Source of the DNA: a virus
Lineage: Duplodnaviria; Heunggongvirae; Uroviricota; Caudoviricetes
IMG/VR virus record: IMGVR_UViG_2671180846_000033
Direction: 5' to 3' (one strand)
DNA: 7,097 nt
Of this stretch, positions 496 to 7,097 are shown in pieces. The notes under the pieces are model-generated. The model was not told the origin of the DNA. It saw only the letters and a program-made list of their open reading frames with translations, and made no database searches. Position numbers and translations under genes: made by a program. Numbering within the stretch: the stretch's first letter is position 1; every line of letters begins with the position of its first letter.

Positions 496-1269
496 ATGAC
501 TAAACATATGGACATTCATTGTCAAACACGCATATTTAACTCAATTAACCATGACACCAAATATAAAATATGTATTTTTACTCCAAAAAACATTAAAAAA
601 AATAATGCAACTCTTTATATACTTGATGGGAATAGTGCCAACAATTACATTTCTGATATTCTGCCTGTTATTGATGCACTACCCAATCCACCAGTGTTAG
701 TTACACTTGGTTATGAATCTTGGAATAACCTTAGCATTCATCGCCGTGCTTACGATTATACTCCTGATGGTGAAAATGCTATTGTTGATAACTCTAAACC
801 AGCATGGATCTACTTTACTGGTGGAGGAAGCCAGTCTTTCCGAGAATTATTACTAACTCAGATCATGCCATGGGTTAGTACTATTGCTCCGAACAGTTCC
901 AGAATCGGTATATGGGGGCACTCGCTAGGTGCTATTTTTGTGCTTGATTGCTTAAAAAATAATTCATGCTTTAACTATTATTATATATCTGCACCATCAC
1001 TTCTATGGCAGAATGAAAGAATCATCAAGATAATTAAAGATGATATATCAGAATCAAAGCACACTAAAAGTATATGCTTGCTTAACGGAAATCTTAGCCT
1101 TGATTACTCCGCATCTTTATATCCTGAAGCCATCAAAGCGGAATCTGTTTTGAGAAATATTTTGACAGAAAAATACAGTAATTTTTCTATTGTACAATTT
1201 CCAGAGCTCAATCATCAGGAGACTTTCTCTGCTGCACTCTGGAATAGCATTATTCATTTCAGCATATAA
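496..1269 (+). CDS. Alpha/beta-hydrolase, putative esterase of the IroE/Fes (siderophore esterase / esterase D) type; no recognisable N-terminal signal peptide
   Basis: 257-aa ORF with ATG at 496 preceded by GGGGAG (485-490). Contains a G-H-S-L-G nucleophile elbow (Ser codon 922-924), an LDG motif near the N-terminus, AYDYTP, and a C-terminal ELNHQ histidine. The N-terminus is hydrophilic. The gene sits in visibly AT-rich DNA. Family call is from motif pattern only. Confidence 0.75.
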   Translation: MTKHMDIHCQTRIFNSINHDTKYKICIFTPKNIKKNNATLYILDGNSANNYISDILPVIDALPNPPVLVTLGYESWNNLSIHRRAYDYTPDGENAIVDNSKPAWIYFTGGGSQSFRELLLTQIMPWVSTIAPNSSRIGIWGHSLGAIFVLDCLKNNSCFNYYYISAPSLLWQNERIIKIIKDDISESKHTKSICLLNGNLSLDYSASLYPEAIKAESVLRNILTEKYSNFSIVQFPELNHQETFSAALWNSIIHFSI

Positions 1270-3399: not shown

Positions 3400-3449
3400 N
3401 NNNNNNNNNNNNNNNNNNNNNNNNNNNNNNNNNNNNNNNNNNNNNNNNN
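3400..3449. other. Run of 50 N at the O-like/P-like gene junction
   Basis: Directly visible in the sequence. Confidence 1.
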
Positions 3450-4254: not shown

Positions 4255-4692
4255 TCAATGCACCACAACAGACTCGCCGGATGACCCGCCGTCGCTGAAA
4301 TACGCTTTCCGGTAAACTGCCTGGACTGCATCATCATGCGCATCAATTGCCGTGCTCAACGCTTCCTGGGCCGCCAGTAATGCACGGCGCTCAACAGTGT
4401 CAAAAATACTGAGGTGATAACGCAGTTCACGCGGAAGAACAGTCAGGATAGCTGGAATTAGTGCCTGAATTTTTTCAACAGCATCAGGCGTATCCTTTTC
4501 AAGCCAGCGAAAAATATTTTGTATGTTCAATCCAATACCCTCTGTCGTAGAGGTGTCATGCATTGGTGGATAAGTCATTTCAAGCTCAAAATATGCTGTC
4601 GCTATATCATCAGCGATTTTTTTGCGCCCTACCCTCGGATAAAGCAGCCACGCATTCATCGCCATGCGGATGTGCTCATGCTTGATTTTCAT
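4255..4692 (-). CDS. ydaT: YdaT-like protein (CII functional analogue of YdaS/YdaT-type prophages)
   Basis: 145-aa ORF starting MKIKHEHI with a C-terminal segment LIPAILTVLPRELRYHLSIFDTVERRALLAAQEALSTAIDAHDDAVQAVYRKAYF that I recognise as YdaT-family. Its ATG (4692-4690) overlaps the upstream gene's TGA in an ATGA junction. Confidence 0.75.
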   Translation of the reverse strand: MKIKHEHIRMAMNAWLLYPRVGRKKIADDIATAYFELEMTYPPMHDTSTTEGIGLNIQNIFRWLEKDTPDAVEKIQALIPAILTVLPRELRYHLSIFDTVERRALLAAQEALSTAIDAHDDAVQAVYRKAYFSDGGSSGESVVVH

Positions 4693-4949
4693 GAATCAAC
4701 TCCCGCCGCTGCTTGTGCGTTAGCCTGATACTCAACAGGTAAACCATCGGTTGGATTAGGGTATTTATCAGGGCGCAATTCATGCGGAGTTACTCCCCAG
4801 TCAAGCGCCTCACATGCTGGTATAACCTCCTCCGCTGGCACTCGTTTTTTAAACCACCCACTTATGGTTTGCGGTGTTTTACCAAGACGACGCCCTAATT
4901 CTGATTGGCTCATTATTGACAGGATTTTCACTTGAGTACTTTTTTGCAT
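4689..4949 (-). CDS. ydaS: Cro-like HTH regulator, YdaS-like
   Basis: 86-aa ORF with ATG at 4949 preceded by GGAGGG. HTH segment SQSELGRRLGKTPQTISGW; divergent from the repressor gene. Confidence 0.7.
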   Translation of the reverse strand: MQKSTQVKILSIMSQSELGRRLGKTPQTISGWFKKRVPAEEVIPACEALDWGVTPHELRPDKYPNPTDGLPVEYQANAQAAAGVDS

Positions 4950-5075
4950 GTTTCCCTCCGAACTTTACGATGACACCGATAATTACAAATTTAAATTTAA
5001 ATTTCAACTTCTATTTGTAATGCCACTTATCAATTTTTTCTGTAGGATCGCGGAACTAGTTTACGAGGGGTGGTG
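4950..5075. promoter_or_regulatory. Divergent control region between the Cro-like and CI-like genes (OR-like)
   Basis: ATTACAAAT (4982-4990) and its reverse complement ATTTGTAAT (5013-5021) flank a palindromic (AAATTT)x3 tract (4987-5004). The 14-bp motif AATTACAAATTTAA (4981-4994) recurs at 6223-6236. Ribosome-binding sites for both flanking genes are present. Confidence 0.6.
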
Positions 5076-5468
5076 ATGATCTTTGTAAAACGCCTTCAGC
5101 AGGTGTTGCAGGAATTGAATATAAACCAGTCAGAGCTGGGAAGACGTCTTGGTGTAAAACCCCAATCCGTGCAAGGTTGGTTGAAAGGCGTGATGCCAAG
5201 AATGGATAAACTGGAAAAATTAGCAGAGCTCTCACAACATCCCGTCCATTGGTTCTTTATGGAAGAAGAAACTCTCGGCGATAAAATGGCTGTATCCAGT
5301 AATGACAACCAACCGCAACTTACAGAACAACAACGAAAAATCATATCGCTTTTAGATGAGTTACCTCAAAGCGACGCAGAGCAGATCATTCGTGATATGG
5401 AGCAAAAACGCGATTTCTATAAACGGAAACTTGAAGAGTTACTGCGGCAGAAAAACAAAACTGCCTGA
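5076..5468 (+). CDS. CI-like phage repressor, XRE-family HTH with coiled-coil-like C-terminus and no S24 peptidase domain
   Basis: The track ORF starts at GTG 5070; ATG at 5076 is preceded by GAGGGG (5065-5070). HTH segment NQSELGRRLGVKPQSVQGW; C-terminal 50 aa are charged and heptad-like. About 130 aa, too short for a LexA-type cleavage domain. Confidence 0.8.
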   Translation: MIFVKRLQQVLQELNINQSELGRRLGVKPQSVQGWLKGVMPRMDKLEKLAELSQHPVHWFFMEEETLGDKMAVSSNDNQPQLTEQQRKIISLLDELPQSDAEQIIRDMEQKRDFYKRKLEELLRQKNKTA

Positions 5469-5499
5469 TGCATTCCTTTTCTGGAACGAGCATCAGGCA
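5462..5499. terminator. Hairpin between the convergent repressor and higA genes (candidate bidirectional terminator)
   Basis: TGCCTGATGC (5462-5471) pairs with GCATCAGGCA (5490-5499), with inner TTCC/GGAA pairing. A T-rich tract follows on the minus strand (reverse complement of 5441-5461). Confidence 0.5.
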
Positions 5500-5514
5500 A
5501 ATGACTAGCAGATT

Positions 5515-5874
5515 TTATAATCCAACCAGGCTTTCCAGGGGGATACCAAATTGATTATGAAGACGGCGAATCATTGGTAACGTAAGGCTTCTGGTACCAT
5601 TCAACACCTCATAAACCCGATTTTTTTTCCCAATTGCGGGTTCCAAATCTTTCACAGTCAGCCCCTGCTGTTCCATGCGAAATCTTATAGCTTCAATTGG
5701 GGATGGTGGCTCAATGGGATAATGTTTTTTTTCATATTCCTCTATTAGCAAACACATCACCTCAAAAAAATCCCCCTCAGGCGTGTCAATTTCGGGCTCA
5801 TTGTCGAACATGGGTTCAACAGCACGCAACGCGGCTTCATAATCTTGCTCTGTACGAATAGGTTTGATGTTCAT
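5515..5874 (-). CDS. higA: HigA-type antitoxin (XRE HTH, type II TA)
   Basis: 119-aa ORF with C-terminal HTH LTVKDLEPAIGKKNRVYEVLNGTRSLTLPMIRRL. Starts 2 nt after the toxin stop, with GGAG upstream. Confidence 0.8.
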   Translation of the reverse strand: MNIKPIRTEQDYEAALRAVEPMFDNEPEIDTPEGDFFEVMCLLIEEYEKKHYPIEPPSPIEAIRFRMEQQGLTVKDLEPAIGKKNRVYEVLNGTRSLTLPMIRRLHNQFGIPLESLVGL

Positions 5875-5876
5875 GC

Positions 5877-6179
5877 TTACTCCAGTTCGATGGTATCAGC
5901 ATCAATAGCATCGTATTCCTTGTGGTTTCCGATGAATTTAACAAATACCCATCCTCGCTGATACGCAATTGCAACAATTAAACGGTAATGATTACCTTTT
6001 ATGTTGAATACCACGCGCCGGTTTTTCAATATACTGGCCGTTCGGTATTGTGCCTTAATGTCTGCTGGGCTTTTCCAGTCAGCTTTTGCCGCCTCATCCA
6101 CCCATGCCCTTAGCGGTTGTTCTGCATCAGGATTCTCCGCCCAAAAATCCCTGAGTGTTTTAACTGAGATAATCTTCAT
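5877..6179 (-). CDS. higB: HigB-type toxin (RelE/ParE superfamily)
   Basis: HigB-like pattern in the translation, including GNHYRLIV and KFIGNHKEYDAID. The track start (6224) is a TTG; the ATG at 6179 gives about 100 aa. Toxin precedes antitoxin, as in HigBA modules. Confidence 0.8.
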   Translation of the reverse strand: MKIISVKTLRDFWAENPDAEQPLRAWVDEAAKADWKSPADIKAQYRTASILKNRRVVFNIKGNHYRLIVAIAYQRGWVFVKFIGNHKEYDAIDADTIELE

Positions 6180-6190
6180 AACTGTATAGT

Positions 6191-6207
6191 AGTCCCATTT
6201 TGGGACT
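6191..6207. promoter_or_regulatory. Perfect 17-bp palindrome AGTCCCATTTTGGGACT just upstream of higB (candidate HigA/HigBA operator)
   Basis: Read directly from the sequence; lies 12-28 nt upstream of the higB ATG on the minus strand. Confidence 0.5.
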
Positions 6208-6222
6208 GATGCAACAGCCCGC

Positions 6223-6276
6223 AATTACAAATTTAATAATAAACATGTTGACCAGTTAAATTTTAATTTGTAAATT
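6223..6276 (+). promoter_or_regulatory. pL-like promoter/operator region for the rightward early operon (OL-like)
   Basis: Second copy of AATTACAAATTTAA (6223-6236); TTGACC (6248-6253), 17-bp spacer, TAAATT (6271-6276); inverted ATTTGTAA (6266-6273) overlaps the -10. Confidence 0.5.
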
Positions 6277-6457
6277 GTATCCATAAACCCACCCCGCCCC
6301 ACAGAACGCAGGGCAATACTTCGAGTTACCCGGCAGTGGTCAGGGGTTAAGTAGCCAGCCTGAGGCGTATGAACATGACGGCGGGGATTACGTTTAACTA
6401 TGCAGCAGGTTTTTTGTTCCGCTACCCCGGCGTTAAGGGGAAACAGAGGATTTCTCA

Positions 6458-6814
6458 GTGGGCGAAGTCAAACATCAGAATGGAAGGCATCCAGGGATCA
6501 GCAAAGAAACAGCGATGGCGCTTTATATTGATATCAGCGCCATTGCCGGACAGGTAAGAATTATCAGAGCGGTAACTAAGCGGTATGCGCCTTTACTTCA
6601 GAAAGTCTCTGGTGAGTGCACCGAAGATATTGTCAACGATTTCGTCATCAAACTGCGAGGACTCATCTTCAGTTACAAGGTGACCACAATTTTTGCAGAT
6701 GGCTCCCGCGAAACTGTCAGAGCCCTGCGGCTTAAAGGATGTGTCAAAGACTTAGCCACCACATTCTGGGCAAGAAAACTTGATTGTATTCATAACCAAT
6801 TTCCTCTCGAGTAA
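6458..6814 (+). CDS. Hypothetical early-left operon protein
   Basis: 118-aa ORF from GTG 6458 (AGAGGA 7 nt upstream) or about 100 aa from ATG 6515. No family recognised. Confidence 0.5.
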   Translation: MGEVKHQNGRHPGISKETAMALYIDISAIAGQVRIIRAVTKRYAPLLQKVSGECTEDIVNDFVIKLRGLIFSYKVTTIFADGSRETVRALRLKGCVKDLATTFWARKLDCIHNQFPLE

Positions 6815-6885
6815 CAGACCCCTCAGAGGATACCACCTCGCCTGACGTGGTTAAAAGCAGGCAGCGCTAACCACAAGGAGCCGAC

Positions 6886-7097
6886 ATGCAGAAACGAGAA
6901 CCCGTCATCATCGCGCCAGACTATACCGATGATGAACTTTATGAGTGGATGCACCAGAAAATTAAGGCAGCGCAGGACCTGAAATGGGCCAATGAAGCCA
7001 GGGCTAAGCAGGCTGAAAATCTGTCCGCTCTGGAGCAGGATATCACCAATCTGGAAAAAGCAGCGGCATTAAGCATTGCCAGAATGATTACATACCC
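6886..7097 (+). CDS. Hypothetical early-left operon protein, 5' part (runs off the window end)
   Basis: ATG at 6886 preceded by AAGGAG (6876-6881). Open frame to the window end; translation begins MQKREPVIIAPDYTDDELYEW and continues with a coiled-coil-like segment. Not in the ORF track because no stop is reached. Confidence 0.55.
   Translation, partial: MQKREPVIIAPDYTDDELYEWMHQKIKAAQDLKWANEARAKQAENLSALEQDITNLEKAAALSIARMITY

Follow-up and report, generated by a model that had tools for sequence, protein, structure and literature searches.

In phage HK022, the put RNA, transcribed immediately after the pL promoter, needs no protein factors to bind RNA polymerase and suppress both pausing and termination (PMC9378689). 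Leaders between an early-left promoter and the first gene are likewise known from lambda (the nutL/N leader) and from the dicBF operon of Qin, a cryptic prophage carried by Escherichia coli K-12. Here, we compare with these systems the early-left leader and downstream genes of a 7,097-nt window (the whole stretch of viral DNA analysed, IMG/VR record IMGVR_UViG_2671180846_000033), which is the immunity region of a lambdoid E. coli prophage. An original prediction, made from the letters alone, had read this leader as a spacer with a small hairpin. Comparative analysis instead indicates that its 5′ domain is a widely conserved, modular structured RNA, in which a hairpin (P1) is followed by a second motif (P2) predicted to form a hairpin or an H-type pseudoknot. 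The hairpin and leader go far beyond chance, and the leader RNA is the most interesting feature of the region, the genes belonging to ordinary known families.

A covarying RNA domain in the 5′ part of the leader

Following ~8 unpaired nucleotides, P1 is built from a base helix (ACCCC 6291-6295 with GGGGU 6343-6347), a middle helix (CCAC 6299-6302 with GUGG 6336-6339) and, beyond a 5-nt internal loop on the 5′ side (AGAAC), an apical helix (6308-6313 with 6329-6334). The same architecture was recovered in single-sequence folds of 14 lineages (the window and 13 others), with an internal loop of 5 nt (6 nt in Berlinvirus-like phages) and an apical helix of 6-7 bp, and compensatory changes were present at 6 of the 6 apical pairs. 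The helix carries a tip whose columns are invariant across lambdoid and T7-like members (alignment A2), the central three bases alone varying (Table 1).

After a short linker, P2 follows the consensus AAGUAGCY-A-X-GGCRUAY-GAAMRU-Y, in which X is the complement of Y throughout the T7-like lineages although the sequences differ (GUCAAC/GUUGAC, GGUUGA/UCAACC, ACCUGA/UCAGGU, CCUAGA/UCUAGG, CCUGU/ACAGG and GUGA/UCAC), canonical X/Y pairing being limited to GCC/GGC in lambdoid copies like that of the window. A possible second helix, S1 (GUAGCY with GGC.UAY), involves near-invariant positions that show only G-C/G-U and C-G/U-G alternation; if formed, S1 would turn P2 into an H-type pseudoknot in which loop 1 has 1 nt and loop 3, rich in A, has 6 nt, a fold compatible with the data. 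A closing helix, P0, joining the 5′ end to the segment that follows Y stands out in some subfamilies and is missing in recombinant leaders, and it was dropped as a general feature. Separately, a miniature version of the element lies upstream of a distant gene 1 homolog (locus L420, ~1370-1470), in which AGCGAA/UUCGCU forms the closing helix, 3 bp stand in for P1 and P2 pairs as CCCG/CGGG; this points to P2 as the element's core.

Pairing was evaluated by comparison with shuffled and slid-partner controls. In a first alignment of 32 sequences, pairing cells reached 80.7% versus 69.3% in shuffles, compensatory changes were found at 12 of 18 pairs, and covariation was 0.337 versus 0.153 in shuffles (reached by 0 of 500), falling to 0.04-0.12 when partners were slid. 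A covariance model built on this alignment (R1) scored the window at 102.9 bits (E 1.7e-29) and true members at 37-103 bits, compared to at most 22 bits for control DNA containing the exact 14-nt loop motif; a scan of genome contigs for this 14-nt pattern returned chance matches only, and the loci so found served as negative controls. In a second collection, seeded independently (100 further matches, 50 distinct sequences), all 12 of the 12 modelled pairs showed compensatory changes and covariation was 0.394 versus 0.143, with slid controls at or below 0.13. As the G-U pairs make the structure strand-specific, it is that of an RNA of the transcribed strand. The minimum free energy of the whole leader was not better than that of shuffles (z = +1.3); single-sequence energy is uninformative here, so that comparative evidence was needed.

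Rfam 15 gave no relevant match in window positions 4900-7097 (E<=10) or in six T7-like loci (E<=1), the same search detecting DicF downstream in the annotated E. coli O26:H11 locus (L001) as a control, and literature searches on a dicB or Rac leader RNA found no description of the element. Identity of the leader with a known prophage small RNA (sRNA) of enterohaemorrhagic E. coli was considered and rejected, since neither AgvB/AsxR (PMC4104026) nor the Pas sRNAs (bioRxiv 10.64898/2026.05.13.724894) show a link; the supplement has no entries near ECs2282, ydfC or dicF.

A module shared by lambdoid prophages and T7-like phages

By BLAST, window positions ~6286-6441 recur in Rac-like phages ahead of different genes, and an IMG/VR pattern scan found more than 150 contigs with the leader. 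In these related contigs, unrelated promoter/operator sequences (at least seven types) meet the conserved leader at the predicted start point, and the leader ends at the ribosome-binding site (RBS) of at least four first genes: a ydfA/ydaF-type gene (MDTIDLGNNESL), a ydaG-type gene (MVHYEVVQYL), one beginning MFTHDIYPSK, and gene 1 of the window. We consider it very improbable that the stretch is a DNA-level site or a hitch-hiking recombination module with no RNA function. The lambdoid copies within E. coli are 90-100% identical and alone yield little covariation, as such a reading would have it, but the compensatory changes across lineages, the G-U wobbles and the register-specific pairing point to structure in the transcribed strand, and the mosaic boundaries coincide precisely with the start site and the RBS.

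The 5′ ~100 nt are present in 3752 of 5426 complete E. coli genomes (~70%), at 6760 places and no more than 7 per genome, and no annotated feature lies under the element among the E. coli matches listed. K-12 MG1655 has one full, unannotated copy, in the racR-ydaG intergenic region of the Rac prophage (NC_000913.3 1419516-1419613, minus strand, 102.4 bits; L310 2517-2614), and because Rac of K-12 carries a copy the element is directly testable. The dicA-ydfA intergenic region of Qin in the same strain (L302 1604-1709) has a leader of ~65 nt that keeps the GTTCCGCTACCCCAGCGTTAAGGGGAAATGAGG hairpin/RBS module without P1 and P2. In some viral contigs, two same-strand copies lie ~2 kb apart (L321, L326, L332 and L375); in L375 one copy follows a cI-like gene, in the pL position, and the other precedes an open reading frame (ORF) of 103 amino acids (aa) that converges on a cro-like gene. 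The Rac-like immunity region of Actinobacillus phage vB_Apl-pPE4 (L003) has an enterobacterial-type leader at ~83% identity, unexpectedly close for the recorded host.

The 5′ domain also occurs in non-coding early regions of Autographiviridae that infect Serratia, Klebsiella, Pectobacterium, Citrobacter, Salmonella, Providencia, Aeromonas and Enterobacter. Each of these T7-like copies, from phages of seven genera, immediately follows a strong sigma-70-type promoter and precedes ocr-like or S-adenosylmethionine (SAM)-methyltransferase-like first genes, often at hundreds of nucleotides from any gene, the next element being another promoter. T7 itself holds a degenerate remnant in its A1 transcript (L301 149-235; CGACACCGGGG..UAAGUAGACAGCCUGAUAAGUCGCACGAAAAACAGG) that is without the conserved P1 tip and is missed by R1. 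A canonical boxA (CGCUCUUUAA) lies further downstream in Serratia phage Kaonashi, in Providencia phages and in T7 (L301 463-475); among the T7-like loci it was placed at ~2683-2725 in L004 and past the element in L293-L295.

This distribution could also be expected of an RNA acting in trans as a decoy or sponge that sequesters or inhibits a host nuclease, RNA chaperone or defence sensor at the onset of early transcription. It would be made first and abundantly, from strong early promoters; it is common to unrelated phage types that share only their host; no specific downstream gene is linked to it in T7-like phages; and some contigs carry two copies. We nevertheless hold a decoy to be rather improbable, as there is no evident terminator or processing site to free a small RNA, lambdoid copies invariably continue into one and the same 3′ leader and RBS, and no target is known.

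The variable middle leader and the 3′ hairpin

Downstream of the structured domain, the middle leader differs in length and sequence between leader subfamilies, and its U-run is missing in ydaG-type and pPE4-type leaders. The CCCC-N8-GGGG hairpin of the original prediction is present where it had been placed, just upstream of the RBS, and it is kept in all lambdoid leaders, that of K-12 Qin included; the 3′ hairpin and RBS form a separate conserved, portable module. In Kaonashi, a covarying hairpin that precedes the adjacent boxA (CCGG-AGGCGUUAAC-CCGG) has the same GGCGUUAA loop as the 3′ hairpin of the window.

An attenuator or intrinsic terminator within the leader was suggested by one minimum free energy fold and was rejected, being neither conserved nor called by an intrinsic terminator scan, which found no canonical terminator in the plus-strand leader. 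This outcome bears on a riboswitch-like sensor, in which an aptamer for a metabolite or ion would control whether early-left transcripts are read through or translated. Several traits of the element are typical of aptamers: its covarying stems, its invariant nucleotides in loops and junctions, the possible pseudoknot and, in some subfamilies, P0. A weak alternative hairpin with a U-run also overlaps the 3′ strand of P2 in the window. However, neither that hairpin nor the U-run is conserved among subfamilies, a conserved terminator hairpin and U-run competing with an aptamer was not found, and T7-like copies have no expression platform, a promoter coming next; we therefore regard a sensor as distinctly improbable.

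A candidate cis-acting modifier of transcription

We tentatively favour, with less confidence than doubt, the reading that the RNA is a put-like cis-acting modifier of the host RNA polymerase elongation complex or of termination, working by antitermination or anti-pausing. The first ~100 nt would fold co-transcriptionally, P1 with its invariant tip being followed by the P2 hairpin or pseudoknot, and the folded RNA would work in cis, upon the host machinery that had just transcribed it. In the manner of the HK022 put RNAs, elongation complexes started at pL would be made resistant to pausing and to Rho-dependent or intrinsic termination, and these modified complexes would read through the untranslated leader and internal terminators, such as that ending DicF, while the 3′ hairpin and RBS module would present the first gene for translation. 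At least the DicF terminator lies ahead of dicB in the operon.

The case for this proposal is comparative. Since lambdoid and T7-like phages share no phage protein able to act as a partner, the partner would have to be host-encoded; because the loops are invariant while the stems covary, a specific partner is implied; and host RNA polymerase is favoured because it is the sole factor common to these transcripts, in all of which the element is made first. Among RNAs of established function, HK022 put is the nearest precedent. T7-like copies precede a promoter, not a gene, which argues against a purely translational role.

That last point also counts against a module for mRNA stability, processing or translation, in which the 5′ domain would shield the long early transcripts from 5′-end-dependent cleavage by RNase E, or serve as an RNase III substrate, and would combine with the 3′ hairpin to adjust how well the first gene is translated. 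Such a role, which we judge unlikely though by no means negligible, would suit the element's placement, which in every context is the transcript's extreme 5′ terminus, and the pairing predicted in several subfamilies between the segment after P2 and the Shine-Dalgarno/start region. P1 is, moreover, a ~20-bp irregular duplex of the kind that RNase III cuts in the lambda N leader and in T7 early RNAs. Transcripts of K-12 ydfA are RNase III-dependent (bioRxiv 10.1101/2023.04.14.536235), though that leader is without P1. On the other hand, protection requires no invariant 15-nt tip, nor the GGCAUACGAA or AAGUAGC blocks kept in temperate and lytic phages; unpaired nucleotides precede P1; and in T7-like phages the element stands before a second promoter, far from start codons.

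Several observations weigh against a put-like modifier. A search of the HK022 immunity region (L005, L006) with R1 gave no match at E<=1, and the element occurs as one copy per immunity region, on the pL side only, compared to putL and putR in HK022. T7-like phages hold a downstream boxA and may need no second antitermination device. The gene kilR lies downstream of the Rac copy and yet is reported to be silenced by Rho/NusG, which misfits a strong anti-Rho activity. Furthermore, K-12 Qin expresses dicF/dicB (bioRxiv 10.1101/2023.04.14.536235) from a leader without the 5′ domain. With these points in mind, and still more tentatively than for the put-like modifier itself, P1 and P2 may represent an undescribed class of host-hijacking RNA, acquired by both temperate lambdoid and lytic T7-like phages, that reprograms RNA polymerase or another host factor: a protein-independent counterpart of put that would be far more widespread.

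Promoter, operon type and neighbouring features

The finding region is 99.7% identical to E. coli O26:H11 11368 and to many other genomes of Shiga toxin-producing E. coli. The annotated O26:H11 locus, at the same identity, served as reference (window coordinate = L001 coordinate minus 801). Transcription from the pL-type promoter would start at about A6283, ~7 nt past the -10 element (Table 1). The leader length of about 180 nt in the original prediction holds as ~175 nt from this start to GTG 6458, and it becomes ~232 nt when measured to the better-supported ATG 6515.

The description of an early-left, pL-type operon next to a toxin-antitoxin module was borne out: HigBA adjoins it, downstream of the repressor gene, and the plus strand of L001 continues through ydfC, the DicF RNA (Rfam RF00039, 75 bits), dicB, a DUF1482 gene, a RecE-like exonuclease gene, xis and int. 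With ydfC in the window, which ends inside this gene, and DicF and dicB in L001, the operon is the counterpart of the repressor-controlled early-left dicBF operon of Qin. No N gene is annotated in the early-left operon of carrier prophages, and no N-like family was found among the Pfam and PHROG matches.

The HigB/HigA pair (5515-6224, minus strand) lies between the repressor gene and the pL-type promoter, and its transcription opposes both. AT-rich operator-like words (ATTACAAATTTAA.. / TAATTTGTAA) are common to both divergent promoter regions (~4975-5030 and ~6222-6270) and fit, as expected, oR and oL of one immunity type. Elsewhere in the window, two 50-base runs of N (2344-2393 and 3400-3449) break ORFs of the early-right operon, making those genes incompletely readable, and at the left end an AT-rich ORF of 257 aa (496-1269, plus strand) with an esterase/hydrolase-like GHSLG motif has the look of a moron or flanking gene.

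Table 1 Features of the immunity region and early-left leader (window coordinates)
Feature	Position	Strand	Basis or detail
CII/YdaT-like gene	4255-4692	-	ORF and profile calls
Cro/YdaS-like gene	4689-4949	-	ORF and profile calls
Helix-turn-helix repressor gene	5070-5468	+	ORF and profile calls
HigA	5515-5874	-	ORF and profile calls
HigB	5877-6224	-	ORF and profile calls
pL-type sigma-70 promoter	6248-6276	+	Consensus scan: -35 TTGACC 6248-6253, 17-nt spacer, -10 TAAATT 6271-6276
Conserved structured RNA domain, leader 5′ end	6288-6385	+	Covariance model R1, covariation
P1 hairpin, three segments	6291-6347	+	Single-sequence folds and compensatory changes
Near-invariant 15-nt P1 tip, CAAUAC-NNN-GAGUUA, here CAAUACUUCGAGUUA	6314-6328	+	Alignment columns
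P2	6351-6382	+	GUAGCC 6351-6356, A, X GCCUGA 6358-6363, GGCGUAU 6364-6370, GAACAU 6371-6376, Y GACGGC 6377-6382
62-aa ORF, spurious	6369-6557	+	GAGG 6362-6365
Variable middle leader, semi-conserved GCAGCAGG-U-run-GUUCCGC	6386-6424	+	Subfamily comparison
3′ hairpin	6425-6440	+	Sequence reading: CCCC 6425-6428, 8-nt loop GGCGTTAA / GGCGUUAA 6429-6436, GGGG 6437-6440
Gene 1, phrog_21318, 99 aa	6515-6814	+	PHROG profile and homologs
ECs_2282-family zinc-ribbon ORF (CPEC...CKNCGH)	6593-6793	-	RefSeq annotation of O26 locus
Gene 2, ydfC	6886-7097, runs off window	+	70/72 codons inside window

Genes downstream of the leader

Both genes following the leader, described at first as matching nothing recognisable, fall into known families. 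The product of gene 2 is identical to K-12 YdfC at 68 of 70 positions (97%, E 1e-49) and matches phrog_1744 (E 1.8e-39), with the RefSeq name 'protein YdfC'. Gene 1 is a member of phrog_21318, a small family conserved among prophages (E 1.5e-66, the whole profile, positions 1-99, aligning with residues 20-118). Nothing was found linking either gene to the antitermination or anti-defence functions for which they had been put forward. Of the profile and structure searches suggested for these proteins, the profiles thus placed both, and the fold search with gene 1 gave nothing significant.

The plus-strand ORFs 6369-6557 and 6458-6814 and the open-ended ORF from 6886 exist as predicted, an antisense ORF at 6593-6793 having been overlooked. 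The 62-aa ORF was rejected as a gene. Its ATG (6369-6371) and upstream GAGG are nucleotides of the conserved P2 motif, the ATG is present in 59 of 156 leader copies (the other 97 have UAA, UAC or UUC there), and its frame runs downstream through an indel-rich stretch. To choose between the 6369 and the 6458/6515 frames was accordingly the wrong question, the real conflict being with the antisense zinc-ribbon ORF.

Translation of gene 1 most likely starts at ATG 6515. An in-frame GTG at 6458, which would give 118 aa, has the better Shine-Dalgarno sequence (AGAGGA 6445-6450), but the PHROG profile aligns from residue 20 and divergent homologs begin at the methionine equivalent to ATG 6515, which makes the latter the likelier start. 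Homologs extend down to 58% identity in a tiny family (11 clusters among 1.84 billion representatives) with no Pfam, NCBIfam-named or PDB relative. An AlphaFold model from a shallow alignment (pLDDT, the predicted local distance difference test score, 69.9) has a plausible helix-helix-helix-hairpin-helix fold, for which Foldseek returned weak winged-helix/PadR-like matches only (best E 0.3); judged from this model, the protein is possibly winged-helix-like.

RefSeq leaves gene 1 unannotated in the O26 locus and calls an 'ECs_2282 family putative zinc-binding protein' on the opposite strand, wholly antisense to gene 1. In the window, this zinc-ribbon ORF reads MNTIKFSCPECGG up to a stop at codon 14 (6752-6754); the O26 copy is intact. 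An intact ORF of ~66 aa with the CxxC...CxxCGH motif being the mark of the ECs_2282 family, the window copy, interrupted by this stop, reads as a pseudogene of that family. The window differs from the O26 locus by three substitutions (6725, 6731 and 6754), of which 6754 makes the stop and all are non-synonymous in gene 1 (M/F/F to L); among 937 matching complete E. coli genomes, none was above 99.2% identity.

Both frames have homologs at 58-70% identity in Klebsiella, Citrobacter and Enterobacter prophages, in which both stay open, and the CxxC...CxxCGH motif is retained down to a distant homolog (CQKC...CSNCGH), encoded antisense to a remote gene 1 relative in L420. Because the frames run antisense with their codons in register, substitutions can be assigned to codon positions. 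Within the overlap, differences fell 305/148/421 at positions 1/2/3 of the zinc-ribbon frame, and differing codons were 259 synonymous and 345 non-synonymous in that frame versus 131 and 485 in the plus frame, a pattern that speaks for the zinc-ribbon frame. Gene 1 has 25 codons beyond the zinc-ribbon ORF; there, differences fell 130/119/248 at positions 1/2/3 of the plus frame, and this third-position excess is a signature of coding in gene 1. Per site, the rate is lower inside the overlap than outside, as double constraint predicts. We infer that the two are probably a genuine sense/antisense overlapping pair whose antisense member is a pseudogene here. AlphaFold gave no confident fold for the zinc-ribbon protein (pLDDT 52.8, shallow alignment).

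In all contexts, gene 1 is co-oriented with the early operon and the zinc-ribbon gene opposed to it, the module standing after cro in L303 and L305 and after cI in L304 and L307. In L303 and L305 (Klebsiella and Citrobacter), it directly follows cro in the early-right operon rather than pL, with its orientation to transcription unchanged. The pair is a smaller annotation issue, as RefSeq and phage pipelines each pick a different strand.

Comparison with known systems

If the RNA modifies transcription, it would explain the expression of distal early genes (kil, dicB and recET) in N-less Rac/Qin-type prophages, suggest how T7-like phages secure host-polymerase transcription of untranslated early leaders, and constitute a second natural RNA controlling RNA polymerase. 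Even apart from what it does, the element is very common in E. coli genomes, has a strong structure, carries no annotation and lies upstream of toxic prophage genes.

The zinc-ribbon ORF resembles the sieB-type genes of lambda, P22 and Rac in lying antisense to the early operon, and the Enterobacter copy (L307) stands beside sieB in the same direction; it differs in overlapping a sense gene along its whole length and shows no similarity to SieB. With the dicBF operon of K-12 Qin, the locus shares the repressor, promoter, leader, small ORFs, ydfC, DicF and dicB, arranged in that order, as well as the same 3′ hairpin/RBS module. In Qin, however, ydfA and ydfB replace the phrog_21318/zinc-ribbon pair, and the leader, at ~65 nt, is without P1 and P2.

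Like the lambda nutL/N leader, the leader of the window is long and structured, lies between pL and the first gene and has a small hairpin near that gene. Unlike nutL, it contains no boxA (CGCUCUUA-like) in 6283-6457, its hairpin has the 8-nt loop GGCGUUAA instead of a GNRA-like pentaloop, and N is missing. The rrn-type boxA of T7-like early regions likewise belongs to an untranslated early leader read by host RNA polymerase, but it is a separate short linear motif downstream of the element, which in T7 itself is only a degenerate remnant.

Homology to HK022 put was considered and rejected, as R1 gave no match and no motif shared with putL was seen by eye. From putL/putR the element differs in showing no similarity of sequence or model, in having a P2 hairpin or pseudoknot in place of a second long stem, and in occurring also in lytic T7-like phages. 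The likeness lies in location and form: in the window, the promoter (6248-6276) is followed by the element (6288-6385) with no annotated N gene, and both are cis-located RNAs of ~70-100 nt that immediately follow pL in a lambdoid phage without N and comprise two structured, bulge-containing parts; put is known to need no phage protein (PMC9378689).

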